DNA from: a virus
Lineage: Duplodnaviria; Caudoviricetes
Length of the DNA: 64,000 bases
IMG/VR virus record: IMGVR_UViG_3300009873_000004
Coordinates: 1-64,000 of that record
Direction: 5' to 3' (one strand)
Shown here: in pieces, positions 1,842 to 32,581 of the stretch
Layout: each line of letters starts with the position of its first letter
How positions within the stretch are numbered: the first letter of the stretch is position 1
Notes under the pieces: model-generated
Told to the model about the DNA's origin: nothing
What the model saw: the letters and a program-made list of their open reading frames with translations, nothing else
Database searches by the model: none
Position numbers and translations under genes: made by a program

Positions 1842-3827
1842 CTAGGCAGGCTGAACGTCCTGGGCGCGGACGAACCAGTCGGAGACGTCCCCGGCCTGGT
1901 CGAAGATGTTGAGCAGGTTGGCCCGGCGCTCGACCACCTGCATGGTCCAGTTGACCACGCGAGTCAGCGGCTGGGGGTTGAAGGGCTGGCCGTCGCGCTT
2001 ATAGAAGGTCATCACTTTGTTGGGGATCTTCAAAGGCCGGGGCGGATTGATTATCCCTTCGGGCCACAGTTCCCACCACTGCGGCGGCTCGGGGATAGAG
2101 TTGACCGGCACAGAAATGCGCACTTCGAAGATGTTGGTTGCACCCAATTTTTCCTGGAGCACGCCCAGGGAAATTGAGTCGTCAACCGTCAGGATGTACT
2201 GGATCATGTCAGCGTCCTCCACATGCAGGGGGTAGCCCCGAAACTCGGTTGGGTTGGGGCTCTCCCGAATCGAAGCCACGTACTGGCGAAATTCATCCAA
2301 CAGGTAGACCGGGGTGTAGTCCTGGTTGGCCCAGGCTTCGTCCGGGTCGGCGGTAAAGGGGGCGAAGCCGACCAGGAACGGGTCCTGGCGGACGTGGTGG
2401 TCATACACCTGCCAGCGCAGGAGCGCGTCCTGCGGGTGATCGTATCCACCCCCGGCATAGAACTCGGTCACGAAGAGCCTGGGTAAGGGCAGGCCGCCCC
2501 GAAAGAGATGGTCGTACAGATAGCGATAGCGCCAGGGCTCCGAACCCGCGCCCAGCGGCAGGTAGGGCGCACCGGGAATGGGCCGGGTGTCAAAGGCCAA
2601 GGGCAAGGGCGACCAGGGGTTGAGGCCTTCATGCACCACCAGGGCGTGCCCGCCTGCGTCGATCGCTTCCACCACTTTGCTCGACAGCCAGCCGAGCAAT
2701 TCCAGGTACTCGGGCGTTCCGGCATTGAAGGCAGGCAGGGCCACCCGCAGGCCTGCCGCCTGGGCCTGCTCGCAGATCTGGCGGCACAGGTTGCCATAGA
2801 TGGCCCAGCCGATCACGCCTTCCGGATCCGCCTCGTTCAGCAGGACAACGTAGTCGATCGCCGCCCGCTCCTGCGGGCTGAGCCCGTTCCAGCGCGAGGC
2901 GGCATAGTCCACGATCGTCGTGGCCCGCTCGGCCACCTGGCTGAAGGACCACAGGTGGATGTCCTGGCAGGCATCCCACTCGGGAGTGAAGAGCCGCCAC
3001 AACGTGGGGAGAAGTGGGTCCAGCGCCCTGGCTTCCAGTAGCAGGCCCGCGTTCTCCACCGAAAGCACGAAAGCGAGCCGATCCCCCTGCTCCAGGATCT
3101 GCCTGGCCTGGTTGGGGCGGATGACGTGCAGGCCGATCTTGGTGCCAGCATTCATGGGCAGGGCCTCCACCACATTCGGGATCCGCACCTGGTAAAGCGC
3201 CAGGCCTTCGCGCAGATAGGAGTGATCGGCCGGGCCGACCCCCGCCCAGGGGTGCCGGTCGCTGTCCTGGTGCAGCGTCCAGGTCGACCAGCCACGCGGG
3301 ACGCGCAGGTTGGGATAGGCCGCAAACCAGCCGGGCCGGTGCGCCAGCAGCTTCTGGCGATCGAGCGACAGGTTGGGATCCAGGAACCACGCCCCTGAGT
3401 AGATCCCGGTCGTGCAGCCGTAAAGCGTATCCAGCCTTCCCAGAAAGGCCTGGATCTTTTGAAAGAGCGCCAGTTCGCCCAAGGCCCCGTCATCTTCCAG
3501 GTCGCACCACACCCCCAGCGGCGGCAGTTCGGGCAGCCATTCCCAGCACAGGTCGGCCTGGCGGATGGGGTCGAGGCCAGGCCGGAAGAAGTAGTAGACG
3601 CCCCACCATTTGAAATGCTTCTTGACCTCGACCAGGCAGCGCTGGAAGACCGGGTCCTGGTTGTAGCCATCGGCAATGCGCAGGATGACGCCATCGGCTT
3701 CCTGCGCCAGGGCATCCCAGTCGATGACGCTCGGGTCCCAAAAGAGCGGATCCCAGGCCCAGGGCGGCACGTTAGCCGGACCCAGGAAGCGGGTCTGGTA
3801 TTTTGAAGAATCGAGTATGTGGATCAT
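1842..3827 (-). CDS. multidomain endolysin: GH25 muramidase, second hydrolase-like domain, C-terminal SH3-like domain
   Basis: GH25 motifs D-x-S-K-Y-Q, IDW, GVYYFFRP, CDLED, YSG..F, W..W.LHQ; second domain begins TKIGLHVI and contains LNEAD and VTEF. Confidence 0.85.
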   Translation of the reverse strand: MIHILDSSKYQTRFLGPANVPPWAWDPLFWDPSVIDWDALAQEADGVILRIADGYNQDPVFQRCLVEVKKHFKWWGVYYFFRPGLDPIRQADLCWEWLPELPPLGVWCDLEDDGALGELALFQKIQAFLGRLDTLYGCTTGIYSGAWFLDPNLSLDRQKLLAHRPGWFAAYPNLRVPRGWSTWTLHQDSDRHPWAGVGPADHSYLREGLALYQVRIPNVVEALPMNAGTKIGLHVIRPNQARQILEQGDRLAFVLSVENAGLLLEARALDPLLPTLWRLFTPEWDACQDIHLWSFSQVAERATTIVDYAASRWNGLSPQERAAIDYVVLLNEADPEGVIGWAIYGNLCRQICEQAQAAGLRVALPAFNAGTPEYLELLGWLSSKVVEAIDAGGHALVVHEGLNPWSPLPLAFDTRPIPGAPYLPLGAGSEPWRYRYLYDHLFRGGLPLPRLFVTEFYAGGGYDHPQDALLRWQVYDHHVRQDPFLVGFAPFTADPDEAWANQDYTPVYLLDEFRQYVASIRESPNPTEFRGYPLHVEDADMIQYILTVDDSISLGVLQEKLGATNIFEVRISVPVNSIPEPPQWWELWPEGIINPPRPLKIPNKVMTFYKRDGQPFNPQPLTRVVNWTMQVVERRANLLNIFDQAGDVSDWFVRAQDVQPA

Positions 3828-3853
3828 GCTATGCTGGCCTCACCACATAAATT

Positions 3854-3882
3854 GCCCCAGCGCTGCGACAACAGCCTGGGGC
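3854..3882. promoter_or_regulatory. hairpin between divergent endolysin and HNH starts
   Basis: GCCCCAG-C-GCTG-CGACAA-CAGC-CTGGGGC. Confidence 0.5.
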
Positions 3883-3907
3883 TTGGCACAGGAACTGGAG
3901 GTTCCAA

Positions 3908-4387
3908 ATGCTTCCCCAGTCTAACATCAATTCGGTTTCCACTCGCTTTTGGTCTAGAGTTGATAGGCTTGGGCCAGACGAATGTTGGCCCAATCATTGG
4001 GCTCCAGGATCGAAAAATCGAGGTGTCTTTCACTTGAATGGTGTTGACACATTCGCTTCCAGAGCAGCCTGGATTTTGACCAACGGGCCAGTTCCAGATG
4101 GTCTTTGCGTATTGCATTCTTGCGATAATGGATGGTGTTGAAATCCAGGCCACCTCTACCTGGGAACCAAGGGGCGCAACAATACCGATCGTAAAGAGCG
4201 CGGCAGAAATGGAAACCTCAAGGGCGAGAGGGCTTATAACGCAATTCTGACAGCAGAAAAGGTCGTCGAGATCAGGCGTTTGTGGAAAGAGGGAAGTCTG
4301 TCTCAATTCAAAATTGCCGATCTCTTTGGCGTATCCAGATCTGCGATCCAGGGAATTGTTGAGCGCAGAACCTGGAAGCATATCTGA
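3908..4387 (+). pseudogene. HNH_3-type homing endonuclease with C-terminal HTH, in-frame TGA at 4139-4141
   Basis: RFWSRVDRLGPDECW...HSCDNGWC*NPGHLYLGT...N..D...RGR...ILTAEKVVEIRRLW...SQFKIADLFGVSRSAI; frame continues past the TGA to a stop at 4385-4387; RBS GGAGG. Confidence 0.85.
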
Positions 4388-4420
4388 CTTGGACAGGTCG
4401 ATGATCCGGATCTTCTTCAT
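4388..4420 (-). pseudogene. orphaned original 5' end of the endolysin (MKKIRIIDLSK)
   Basis: ATGA overlap with the tail-fibre stop; GC-rich codons; matches the GH25 start motif; ends exactly at the HNH stop codon. Confidence 0.75.
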
Positions 4421-6219
4421 AGAAACGCCGAAACGGCCCGGATCCAGTGCGCCGGGAAGGGGCTGGTTGATCCAGTCAGGGTTACGCCAAAGTCGGCGGC
4501 CGAACCGACCTTGCGCACGATTGAGTAATAGCGGGTCTTGATCGTCACGTCGATCGCCCTGCGCTTGGTAAACAGATAGTCCCAGGAAGCATCGCTTTGC
4601 CGATGCAGCACATTGAAGAGCGTGTCGGTTGCTCCGGTGTCGGAAGTGGACAGGCTGGTGCAGGCCCCATCGAAGTCGGCTCCGGTGCGCTGGTAGGTGA
4701 AGGCGTATTCCAGCCACCAGGAGCCAATTGGCAGGTCCAGGAAGTGTGAGCGGATGTTGTACCAGACGCCGTTGGACAGCGACGAGTAAGTGGAGCCGGA
4801 GGTCGTGACCAATTCGACCTTCCACTTTTCGGGCGAGAGCGGCATGCCGTAAGGCGCTTTGACCACGGAATAATACGGGCTATTGATGGCCTCGTTCGCC
4901 AGGTCGTAGTCGGTGCCGCCGAACAGATACAGCAGGGTGTTGGGATCAGAGTATTCGACCCTGGTGATGATGAAATACTTGGTCCCGCCCGTCGTCTGGT
5001 TGACTCGCAGGCGCATCCCGGCGCTGAAATGGTTGGTGAAAAATCCCGTCATCCGGGCCACGTAGGTCGGATCGTCGGCCGAGTCGTAGGTCAGGGTCTG
5101 GCCCCAGGGAGTCCAGCCTGCCAGGGGGATGGCGTCCGAGCCAGAGGTGGAGGCGGCCGAGCCGGAGGTGGCGATGGTGACGTCCACCCGCTGCTGGGCC
5201 TGGTTGTCGCTGACCGCAATCGAGATGCCCGAGCCTTCGATCAGGTTGAGCTTGGGCTTGAAGCCGGTCAGCGTGCCGCCGTTCTCCTGGATCTGCATGC
5301 CCGAGCCGGAGGTGGCAAGCGAGGTTTCAAAGGTCAGGTTGACCCGGTTGTTTATTTCACTGTCCGTGGCCGTGATCGAGATGCCGTTCCCCTCGATGAA
5401 GTTCAGGGTGCGCCGGTTGCCGACAAACGACCCGTTCTCGCGGATCTCGATGGCCGAGCCGGAGGTCATGGCGGCCTGGTCACGCAGCAAGTGGAAGGAC
5501 AGATAAGGCGAATACTCGCCGCTGGCCGAGCCCGACGTTGACAGGACCGTCATGGTCGCCGGGCCGGGGTTGGTCATATTCAGAGTCAGATAATCGCCCA
5601 CATCCAGGTCGACCAGCGCGGCCAGGCTGCCGCTTTGCATGTTCGCCATGTCCTGGTAGACCAGCGTTCCGCGTGTGGAGTGGACGAGCTTGAGGACGTT
5701 GCCGCCTGTGCTCTCGTTGCCGCTGTAGAAGACCTGGGCCGTGACCAGATAGATCCCGGCCACCACGCAGTACAGGCGGTCGTTATCGGTGACGGTGCTG
5801 TGCTGGTTGTCGGTGTCATACGTCTCGGCGTTGAAGCCGATGTTCGCATTGTCGCTGGCCGAGATCGACTGGGAGGTGGTGCGGTAAATGCGAGCGCCCA
5901 CCACCGCCGCTTCCGAGAAAGCGCCCGACGAGCCGGAAGTGTCGACCACCGACTCCAGTTCGCCCAGCCGGTAGCGGATGTGGTTGAGGTTATCCAGCAG
6001 GGAAGTATTGCCCGCCAGGGTCTCGGCCTCGCTCGTGTCGTAGGCCACCAGGGTCTGCGGCAGGCGGCCGATGAAGCCGCCAGGCGGTCCCCCCACCCCG
6101 CCGCCCGAGCCGGAGGTGCCGCCCAGCCAGATCGGAGCCAGCTTGGAGCGGCGAATGGCGGCCTGGAGATACTCCAGGTACATCTGCGGGAACTGGGGAT
6201 TGCGATTGAGAGTGCTCAT
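4417..6219 (-). CDS. tail fibre / receptor-binding protein
   Basis: Last tail gene before lysis; C1q/BclA-like jelly-roll segment (GARIYRTTSQSI...GIYLVTAQV); two about 50-aa repeats (ENG...LN.IEG.GISI); 8 TSGS. Confidence 0.75.
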   Translation of the reverse strand: MSTLNRNPQFPQMYLEYLQAAIRRSKLAPIWLGGTSGSGGGVGGPPGGFIGRLPQTLVAYDTSEAETLAGNTSLLDNLNHIRYRLGELESVVDTSGSSGAFSEAAVVGARIYRTTSQSISASDNANIGFNAETYDTDNQHSTVTDNDRLYCVVAGIYLVTAQVFYSGNESTGGNVLKLVHSTRGTLVYQDMANMQSGSLAALVDLDVGDYLTLNMTNPGPATMTVLSTSGSASGEYSPYLSFHLLRDQAAMTSGSAIEIRENGSFVGNRRTLNFIEGNGISITATDSEINNRVNLTFETSLATSGSGMQIQENGGTLTGFKPKLNLIEGSGISIAVSDNQAQQRVDVTIATSGSAASTSGSDAIPLAGWTPWGQTLTYDSADDPTYVARMTGFFTNHFSAGMRLRVNQTTGGTKYFIITRVEYSDPNTLLYLFGGTDYDLANEAINSPYYSVVKAPYGMPLSPEKWKVELVTTSGSTYSSLSNGVWYNIRSHFLDLPIGSWWLEYAFTYQRTGADFDGACTSLSTSDTGATDTLFNVLHRQSDASWDYLFTKRRAIDVTIKTRYYSIVRKVGSAADFGVTLTGSTSPFPAHWIRAVSAFL

Positions 6220-31014: not shown

Positions 31015-31936
31015 CGGCAATACTTTCCAGATAGCTGTCCCAGCGCCGGACGGTGATGCCCGGATCGAAATGGGTCAGTGTCCAATTGTAGGCCGGGTCG
31101 ACCATTTCCAGGTAGGGAGCCGGGTCCCTCAGAAAGGCGTGGATGTGGTTGACGAACTCTTCCGAGTTGCGGGCGAAGTGGGCGAAGCCGCCCGTCGTCT
31201 CGCGCAGGGCCGGAATGTCCTGGCATATGACCGGCACCCTGCCCATCTGCGCCTGGGCGACGGAGGTGCAGCAGCACTCGTCCCGTGTGGGGAAGACGAA
31301 CAACTTCAGGTTGCGATAGAAGATCTTGGGGTTGACCCAGCCGGTGATCAGGCAGTTGGACGGCGCTCGCTTCTGGCAGACTTCCAGCAACGGCCCGTCT
31401 CCGGCTAGGGCAAAGGGCTGTGCTGCAAAGACCCAGGCCAGGGCGATAAACTCCAGCGGGCACTTCTCGTCCGCCAGGCGGCTGAGTTTTCCGATCACGG
31501 TCGGGGTTACTTCCGGATCGCGTTCCATGCGCTCAACGATCGCGTAGATCGTGGTGCGGTTGGGCATGCGCAGGTTGCGCTCGGAGGCCAGATGGCTCAT
31601 CGCCACAAAACCGTCCACCAGTTCGGGCGGGGTCGGGCTGGCCGCGATCGAGTGCATGCACTCCACGAACTTCGCCCCCCACTCGTGCGCCAATCTGGCG
31701 TTGTCGGCATAGCTCCAGCCGCCAACCGTGTGGCCGACGACGACTTTGTAAGTGCTCTTGAGTTCTTCCGGGGGTCCGCCTGGGAATAGGCGCATGCCCT
31801 CCAAGCGCATCTGCTCGGCCATTGAGCCATCCGCCGCCCAGAAGTCGTGAACATGCTTGGAGTGCCGGTGCAGGCGCAGCAGGTTGGCCTGGATGCCGCC
31901 CCTATGACTCACGTCGAGACAATGAAGAATATTCAT
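31001..31936 (-). CDS. glycosyltransferase, GT4
   Basis: MNILHCLD...RGG start; LFVFPTRDECCCTSVAQAQMGRVPVI variant of the EGFG..EA motif; ATGA overlap with the HNH stop. Confidence 0.85.
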   Translation of the reverse strand: MNILHCLDVSHRGGIQANLLRLHRHSKHVHDFWAADGSMAEQMRLEGMRLFPGGPPEELKSTYKVVVGHTVGGWSYADNARLAHEWGAKFVECMHSIAASPTPPELVDGFVAMSHLASERNLRMPNRTTIYAIVERMERDPEVTPTVIGKLSRLADEKCPLEFIALAWVFAAQPFALAGDGPLLEVCQKRAPSNCLITGWVNPKIFYRNLKLFVFPTRDECCCTSVAQAQMGRVPVICQDIPALRETTGGFAHFARNSEEFVNHIHAFLRDPAPYLEMVDPAYNWTLTHFDPGITVRRWDSYLESIADGHD

Positions 31937-32545
31937 TCCTTCCACGACCTGCCAACAATAATGGCACTAATGTTTGCCCGTTTGACGCCATAGTTGTCAG
32001 CCAACTGCTGCTGTGTCATCACACGCTCCTTGTAGAGCCTGCGTATTTCTCGCACATCATCCCAGGTCAAAACCGCCCTGGCCGCATTTTCCCCTCTCGG
32101 GTAAGGCGTCTTGCGATTTTTCTTGACTCGCCCCAGGCCATTATCTGTGGCCCGCTTGATATTTTCTAGCTGAGTTACCGGCTCCAGATTGGACGGACAA
32201 TTGTTGTGCTTATTGCAGTCCTTGTGATCGATCTCAAGATCGTCAATAACATCCCCAAAAAAGTAGATGTAGACCACTCGATGCGCCGAGGCCTTGATCG
32301 ACTGCCCGTCCTTGAATGTCGAAAGCCTAAGATAGCGCCCAGCATTCTCTGCTCGCTTTGGCTTTTTGAGTCTGATCCTTCCAGCAAACGGATGGATCCA
32401 CCAATGACGCCAGATTCGGCCTTCATCATCAATCGATAGTGTTCCATTTTGGACCAGACTCAGAAAGAACTTCTCCCCAGGTCGCATTGTCATCTCCTTG
32501 GTAAAAGATGACAATAGTATACAGCAAATGGTGGTATTCAGAAAG
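31901..32545 (-). mobile_element. free-standing HNH element 2 inserted in the GT4 5' end, carrying a recoded replacement start
   Basis: AT-rich 645-bp segment flanked by two versions of MNILHCLD.S.R with different synonymous codons. Confidence 0.85.
31933..32487 (-). CDS. HNH homing endonuclease with C-terminal HTH
   Basis: AHRVVY...IDHKDCNKHNNCPSNLEPVTQLEN; LTWDDVREIRRLY...QQQLADNYGV; RBS AAGGAG; TATACT upstream. Confidence 0.9.
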   Translation of the reverse strand: MRPGEKFFLSLVQNGTLSIDDEGRIWRHWWIHPFAGRIRLKKPKRAENAGRYLRLSTFKDGQSIKASAHRVVYIYFFGDVIDDLEIDHKDCNKHNNCPSNLEPVTQLENIKRATDNGLGRVKKNRKTPYPRGENAARAVLTWDDVREIRRLYKERVMTQQQLADNYGVKRANISAIIVGRSWKE

Positions 32546-32581
32546 CCGGTTGGAATTGTCCAGGCAGTGCAGGATATTCAT
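32546..32581 (-). pseudogene. orphaned original 5' end of GT4 (MNILHCLDNSNR)
   Basis: ATGA overlap with the upstream MTase stop; GC-rich codons ATC CTG CAC TGC CTG GAC. Confidence 0.8.

Follow-up and report, generated by a model that had tools for sequence, protein, structure and literature searches.

A foreign HNH nuclease cassette in the 5' end of a phage GH25 endolysin gene, with a replacement start for the gene that it split

Among described systems, the mORF gene hybrids of fungal mitochondria, known from Allomyces atp6 and from Glomus atp6, atp9, cox2, and nad3 (PMC3630166), are by analogy the closest in resemblance to the locus treated here, the 5' end of a GH25 endolysin gene of a tailed phage (Caudoviricetes; IMG/VR record IMGVR_UViG_3300009873_000004) in which a foreign cassette with an HNH nuclease gene resides. 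The 83.8-kb record, obtained from activated sludge, has direct terminal repeats, and its first 64 kb (positions 1 to 64,000) constitute the window analyzed in this work. As in the mORFs, an endonuclease open reading frame (ORF) is accompanied by a diverged duplicate of a gene end that replaces the native end, an orphan of the native end is left behind, the differences between both copies are largely synonymous, and a foreign donor is inferred (PMC3630166). However, mORFs replace C-termini, encode LAGLIDADG or GIY-YIG enzymes, and are co-oriented and often in phase with the gene (PMC3630166), whereas the window cassette replaces the N-terminus together with the start codon, encodes an antisense HNH_3 enzyme, and is found in a phage. 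It therefore qualifies as a gene hybrid of the mORF type as an analogue, not as a member by descent.

The mobile cassette of MobA and gene 39-gene 60 of phage T4, reportedly described by Bonocora and co-workers in 2011, seems to be a looser parallel. There, too, an HNH cassette sits in an essential gene, extra sequence keeps the gene functional, and the target is disrupted, but in T4 the protein is split into two polypeptides and ribosomes bypass 50 nt, whereas the window has neither and shows only a replaced 5' end. With the HNH group I introns in phage lysin genes, the cassette shares the kind of target gene and the nuclease superfamily; unlike them it has no ribozyme, its nuclease is antisense, and a second start rather than RNA splicing is predicted to restore the gene. 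The intronless homing of the T4 Seg and Mob enzymes (PMC2988022) is similar in that a free-standing nuclease gene, here an HNH gene, of foreign composition and sporadic occurrence lies beside a conserved essential gene and a diverged flank travels along. However, Seg and Mob genes usually sit between genes and their enzymes cut at a distance, whereas the window cassette lies inside a reading frame, antisense to the invaded gene, leaves an orphan start, and appears to supply the working start codon. In the open-access literature, we found no description of such an N-terminal, start-codon-replacing version in phages.

The locus consists of the following features.

6219..4417, minus strand: tail-fiber gene (600 aa; GC content at third codon positions, GC3, 0.85), with weak C1q/TNF-like matches only.
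4420..4388, minus strand: orphan stub, the predicted 11-codon original start of the endolysin gene (MKKIRIIDLSK, containing D8-x-S10-K11), in GC-rich codons of host type.
3801-4387, no strand: foreign insert of 587 bp, with a GC content of about 0.50 versus about 0.65 in the flanks.
3908-4387, plus strand, antisense to its neighbors: gene for an HNH_3 nuclease with a putative C-terminal helix-turn-helix (HTH) region, interrupted by an in-frame TGA at 4139-4141.
3828-3907, no strand: 5' leader of the HNH gene, with GGAGG at 3897-3901, six nt ahead of the HNH ATG.
3827..3801, minus strand: replacement start (MIHILDSSK), an ATG plus eight AT-rich codons, restoring I-L-D-S-S-K of β-strand 1 with the active-site Asp D6.
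3800..1842, minus strand: native endolysin body (PF01183), codons 10-661 plus stop, comprising the GH25 domain followed by a C-terminal region of about 430 aa.

The TGA of the tail-fiber gene (4419-4417) overlaps the ATG of the stub (4420-4418) as ATGA, and the triplet following the stub (4387-4385) is the complement of the TGA stop codon of the HNH ORF (3908-4387, plus strand). All ten non-start codons of the stub end in G or C. At the other side, the replacement codons continue in frame into YQTRFL at 3800, which gives an endolysin of 661 aa, and only 3 of the 8 replacement codons end in G or C versus a GC3 of 0.84 in the rest of the gene (binomial P = 0.004). The shift in composition is abrupt at both boundaries of the insert, which occurs in one copy in the genome. 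A 228-nt contig from a wastewater metagenome of another study (2024, five years later) covers 3662-3889 with three differences and includes the junction between the new start and the cassette. A sequence-only reading of this DNA had proposed that a foreign HNH element splits the 5' end of the endolysin gene, orphans the native start, and provides a new one that keeps the Asp motif. Position by position, all of its statements about the sequence were confirmed, and layout, codon usage, and the break in GC content bear out the proposal. We thus read the locus as a foreign HNH cassette within the 5' end of the endolysin gene, with the native start orphaned and the cassette end predicted to supply the working start.

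The stub can be recognized as the former gene start by comparison with uninterrupted genes. An exhaustive HMMER search retrieved endolysin relatives with identities of up to 45%; as to closer ones, an index of 5.8 billion proteins contained only the protein itself, and none were found in IMG/VR or, by tblastn, among cultured phages. Fifteen relatives were compared, 13 of them aligned and two more (P0012 and P0016) re-read with corrected starts. These two might have been taken for N-terminally cut relatives, an option that was rejected, as they had been called from the internal Met of S-M-Y-Q and their true starts, active-site Asp included, lie 8-14 codons upstream (L178 2426-2500; L179, L180). 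In all 15 relatives, a few residues and two hydrophobic ones are followed, uninterrupted, by D-x-S-x-Y-Q, as the sequence-only reading had predicted for relatives without the insert, and none of them begins with a spelling of the MIHILDSSK type. At the DNA level, the insert-free loci L002/L003, L004, L178, and L179 show D-x-S-x-Y-Q contiguously, and lysin starts of the relatives touch or overlap the upstream stop codon (TGATG in L002 and L004; TAG directly followed by ATG in L178). When fused to the present gene at codon 10, the stub yields the N-terminus of the family with the same coupling to the upstream gene, and it is therefore the original endolysin start. A chance origin is, in our reading, excluded: two hydrophobic residues followed by D-x-S-K sit exactly where joining to codon 10 recreates the N-terminus of 15 out of 15 relatives.

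The encoded protein is predicted to be a GH25 enzyme by sequence family, modeled fold, N-terminal Asp, and D-x-E motif. Residues 35-196 match Pfam GH25 (PF01183, E = 1.2e-9). The AlphaFold2 model has a pLDDT (predicted local distance difference test) of 87.9, with 94 for the first strand (residues 3-7). Residues 1-217 of the model superpose on residues 4-215 of Cellosyl (1jfx) with a Z-score of 24.2 and a root-mean-square deviation (rmsd) of 2.0; over 4krt and 1jfx together, Z is 24 and the rmsd 1.6-2.0, and Cpl-1 is aligned from residue 5. Going by the residue offset in this superposition, D6 corresponds to Asp9 of Cellosyl and to Asp10 of Cpl-1, which we take to be the N-terminal active-site aspartates of these enzymes. 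All 15 relatives keep an Asp in the column of D6, and D109 and E111 are invariant in the alignment of 13 sequences. An alternative HMMER alignment to 6zmv, pairing the Asp motif of the latter with endolysin residues 26-31, was rejected, as that column contains D, N, or K in the relatives and the structural alignment begins at residue 1.

A corresponding layout is found in other phages with nuclease genes of the same clade. In L005, an intact gene for P0152, the closest relative of the window HNH protein (66% identical; 200 aa; the first five residues in common with the window copy), lies in antisense orientation, with a tail gene on one side and a lysin gene on the other. Three bases past the tail-gene stop, a stub of 12 ATG-led GC-rich codons encodes D8, S10, K11, and W12 and abuts the HNH stop. 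Window positions 3824-4387 are homologous to the L005 cassette, and the leader is conserved with L005 4921-5000 through the lysin ATG and the following A, where homology ends. L175 carries P0153 (HNH protein 50% identical); its upstream TAG is directly followed by a GTG-led stub of 12 codons with D8 and W12. Beyond it lie 57 nt, the antisense HNH gene, and then a new GH25 start of canonical type, which is ATG-led and AT-rich at third positions over some 16 codons before the gene turns GC-rich. In L176, with P0154 (47% identical), the HNH gene likewise faces away from a lysin-like gene, which carries G-Y-D-I-S-K-W-N. In window, L005, and L175, the stub is cut at the same motif codon, plus or minus one. 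The three stubs are unrelated in DNA, each written in the codon style of its host, and the distance from stub to HNH stop is 0 in the window, 0-6 in L005, and 57 nt in L175, while the donor-like tracts comprise 8, about 18, and about 16 codons, respectively. Because the stubs are unrelated in DNA and the distal junctions differ, the three look like independent invasions at one motif codon plus or minus one, the pattern to be expected of a site-specific nuclease. Within the L175 spacer (roughly plus-strand 774-830), we observed GACCTGTCC, in frame as D-L-S and identical to the Asp-Leu-Ser codons of the window stub; it may be a remnant of the stub of an earlier host that was carried with the cassette, or may have arisen by chance.

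Whether such an element has to be removed from the transcript can be judged from its ends. Phage lysin genes are known intron targets. Short N-terminal exons are, in addition, easily overlooked, as with the ICP1 terminase (PMC10448857), and the stub might accordingly be read as exon 1, and 3801-4387 as an intron (group I or II) or some other element that removes itself and encloses a nuclease ORF in antisense orientation. We regard this as highly improbable. The region 3400-4800 gave no Rfam match to an intron on either strand at E values up to 10 beyond a noise match. For splicing to restore K11-Y12, the exon would have to end in G or U and the insert in A, which leaves no terminal G for a group I intron, and the insert also ends without the GUGYG...AY of group II, so that both the ribozyme core and the splice-site bases of either class appear to be absent. 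Furthermore, stub and body lie in different reading frames (587 = 3 x 195 + 2), the body is preceded in frame by an ATG-led motif copy, and the nuclease is antisense. On this point the sequence-only reading, which had the element function with no need of splicing, is upheld. The features agree instead with a free-standing HNH gene: there is no RNA family match, the insert runs antisense to the host gene and does not keep its frame, its composition is foreign, and its presence is sporadic, the HNH gene being absent at the lysin 5' end in the five endolysin relatives whose DNA was read and present in L005 and L175.

The respelled codons might be explained in two ways. All six codons differ between the old and the new motif, four of the changes being synonymous and two not, and 10 of 18 bases are shared. 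A difference in every codon is what saturated divergence between distant homologs would produce, and the replacement codons resemble the 5' part of a diverged allele that came from a donor along with the nuclease; deliberate recoding is not needed to explain them. A locus that allows a direct comparison is L172, an HNH-free relative of L005 with a lysin 80% identical and a lysin ATG that overlaps the upstream stop. The lysin genes of both agree at only 17/30 and 21/30 positions over the first 60 nt and at 26-30/30 in nearly every window printed thereafter (one dips to 21; average about 93%), a step that reads as a sharp conversion boundary beside the nuclease. Alternatively, as the sequence-only reading has it in its strong form, the respelled start could have been selected as an integral part of the element, an evolved module for self-repair that travels from host to host, rebuilds the invaded gene and confers immunity to cleavage by the element's own nuclease. 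The ATG and the next base do lie within the block conserved between the window and L005 cassettes, all four new starts known to us (two from the window, the second described below, and those of L005 and L175) begin with ATGA, and the architecture recurs. However, the codons past the ATG are lineage-specific and match whichever lysin type follows, as would be the case for co-converted donor alleles, and co-conversion of flanking alleles is ordinary behavior of free-standing nucleases (PMC2988022). Moreover, insertion by itself would already split and disrupt the old target. We therefore consider such a self-repair module rather doubtful.

The interpretation that we favor, and hold to be likely, is that a free-standing HNH_3-HTH homing cassette inserted itself between codons 11 and 12 of the GH25 endolysin gene, in the DNA encoding β-strand 1 with the active-site Asp. 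Homing would have been intronless and probably one-sided, with a diverged donor contributing the 5' allele with which the gene now begins. In this scheme, the nuclease of a co-infecting donor would cleave an allele without the insert, at or beside the codons for D-x-S-K-[Y/W]-Q, and the broken end on the side of the gene body would invade the homologous lysin gene of the donor. Copying would then extend through the initial codons of the donor gene, the leader, and the HNH gene. As the hypervariable tail-fiber neighbor has no homology to the donor, the other end would undergo illegitimate joining shortly after the HNH stop. For T4 introns, one-sided homing in which illegitimate repair leaves junctions at microhomologies has been shown, as reviewed (PMC2988022). 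The outcome is an 11-codon orphan still coupled to the tail-fiber stop and an endolysin predicted to be read from the ATG of the cassette and eight codons in donor spelling. Since then the nuclease has decayed, with a TGA in its metal finger and no zinc ribbon, and the cassette would be a fixed fossil from which an essential start codon is still supplied. The insert may not have been recombined out because its two copies share only 10/18 bases, presumably too little for recombination between repeats. The sequence-only reading went further in stating that the element cannot be deleted wholesale without losing lysis; this part does not hold, as the stub is intact and exact removal of 3801-4387 would recreate the ancestral ORF.

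A different history is conceivable in which the stub is the relic of an earlier lysin that gave way entirely to another one, acquired laterally and equipped with its own start, the HNH gene merely marking the boundary. Nuclease genes have been reported at boundaries of genetic exchange between phages (PMC10448857), and in L005 (4114-5660) a stub of canonical GH25 type stands ahead of a lysin of a divergent type (GKGYFVWQ), whose family has P-x-G-K-G-[YMF]-F-[VI]-W as its native start. A derivation of the L005 stub from the N-terminus of L005's own lysin was examined and rejected, since no convincing alignment was obtained in any frame and this lysin family starts differently. For the window, however, exchange of the whole module appears improbable: from codon 10 onwards the body has host composition (GC3 0.84 versus 0.85 in the tail-fiber gene), only eight codons are foreign-like, and stub and body together form a seamless N-terminus of the family.

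Several observations weigh against the favored scenario of one-sided homing from a diverged donor. The mismatch between stub and lysin in L005 suggests that the history there includes a swap of the lysin module besides simple insertion. A search among the contigs of four public runs, and among contigs only, yielded neither an HNH-free allele nor a joint that skips the insert; with no RNA data set listed among those carrying the locus, the missing joint speaks neither for nor against expression. No donor lineage was found, and the order of events is inferred. Finally, low GC3 in the first codons can also reflect selection on translation starts, and the HNH-free L172 indeed has some early codons ending in A or T.

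The nuclease of the window is probably a decayed, inactive pseudogene, although a member of its family by descent. Translated through the stop, its ORF matches PF13392 (E = 5.7e-9, above the curated cut-off), and PHROG HNH families also match across the in-frame stop. The TGA at 4139-4141 lies between the Cys and the Asn-Pro of the C-x-N-P-x-H-L metal finger, with homologs aligning across it and showing C, V, or T in that column. We see no reason to assume recoding of this TGA, as TGA is the commonest ordinary stop among the long open frames of the window (51/98). A truncated product of 77 aa would lack half of the nuclease fold and the DNA-binding end. For the C-terminal 45 residues, HTH matches are below threshold, and the region is conserved across all homologs and in the second HNH protein of the window. 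At the N-terminus of P0152, the five residues shared with the window copy are followed by a zinc ribbon of about 41 residues (CxxC...C), which the window HNH protein does not have. As the window copy already appears dead, no present-day homing is expected from it.

How the new start is reached by ribosomes touches on the leader, the complement of which carries a GGTGAGG (3844..3838) resembling a Shine-Dalgarno (SD) sequence upstream of the new endolysin start, with 10 nt between it and the ATG at 3827. Of 72 crudely assigned gene starts in the genome, 49 have no SD core within 22 nt, and 24 (a third) overlap the stop of a gene upstream; the GGTGAGG therefore carries little weight. The genome-wide pattern of starts suggests a host with weak use of SD sequences and heavy translational coupling. 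No sigma-70-like promoter was found in the HNH leader (3828-3907). A further open frame crosses the insert.

4420..3824, minus strand: open frame of 198 codons led by the stub and running antisense through the HNH gene; its TGA (3826-3824) overlaps the new ATG as ATGA.

This frame has no internal stop, versus seven in each of the other two frames, and as a weak hypothesis it could relay ribosomes from the tail-fiber gene to the endolysin gene. The idea is weakened by the fact that 15 of 63 homologs of similar GC content (24%) have the same antisense frame open, and the frame is not conserved in L005 or L175.

The window contains a second cassette in another gene.

31901-32581, minus strand: second cassette, in a GT4 glycosyltransferase gene, with the best duplication score in the genome (53).

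Here, a 12-codon orphan GT4 start, ATGA-coupled to a methyltransferase gene, precedes an intact and co-oriented HNH_3-HTH gene whose product is 33% identical to the first HNH protein (E = 3e-14). A new start of 12 codons, respelled at wobble positions and ATGA-coupled to the HNH stop, follows; 10 of the 12 residues are kept and 22 of 36 bases shared. More distant relatives were surveyed by scoring start-led peptides on either side of the HNH gene in 160 loci of more distant homologs, with a permutation maximum of 40 in 951 pairings. Flanking duplicates above this maximum occur in L033 (68), L146/L147 (52), and L126 (41). In L033, the duplicate is a C-terminus, the last 20 or so codons of a gene, around an antisense HNH gene (minus strand relative to HNH); L146/L147 show a 19-codon duplicate of a small gene, and in L126 the old start of a gene for a CoA-binding domain is fused in frame to the zinc ribbon of the nuclease. 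With a GH25 hidden Markov model, a lysin was found beside the HNH gene in only a few of the 160 loci, namely L149 (no stub), L091/092 (order holin-HNH-lysin), and L115, and a motif scan gave no further GH25 starts next to distant HNH homologs. The association with lysins therefore seems to be confined to the close HNH clade. Elsewhere in the window, a 302-aa ORF on the plus strand (388-1296) resembles an integrase by eye; should it be one, a temperate lifestyle of the phage would be possible.

A more far-reaching possibility is that an HNH_3-HTH clade has specialized on the DNA for the catalytic-Asp strand of GH25-type phage lysins and spreads between unrelated phages as a splicing-free cassette that replaces gene starts, in which case every invasion would orphan a resident start and put a donor-spelled one in its place, the stubs would be fossils of invasions, L175 would perhaps hold two nested stubs, and the antisense frame of the dead HNH gene would be kept open as a relay. 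We put this forward as a speculation that is more probably wrong than right in this full form.

For the annotation of such genomes, the analysis implies that the true endolysin start is borne by the cassette, that the 11-codon orphan ORF and the 198-codon antisense ORF are probably not genes, and that the HNH gene should be treated as a likely pseudogene. With three natural insertions, apparently independent, at one catalytic-motif codon, the target preference of this nuclease clade becomes directly testable. More generally, by replacing the start of a gene, a selfish nuclease can settle in an essential reading frame with no need of an intron, an intein, or division of the protein, and the locus suggests that distant phages exchange the 5' ends of their lysin genes through nuclease-driven conversion.

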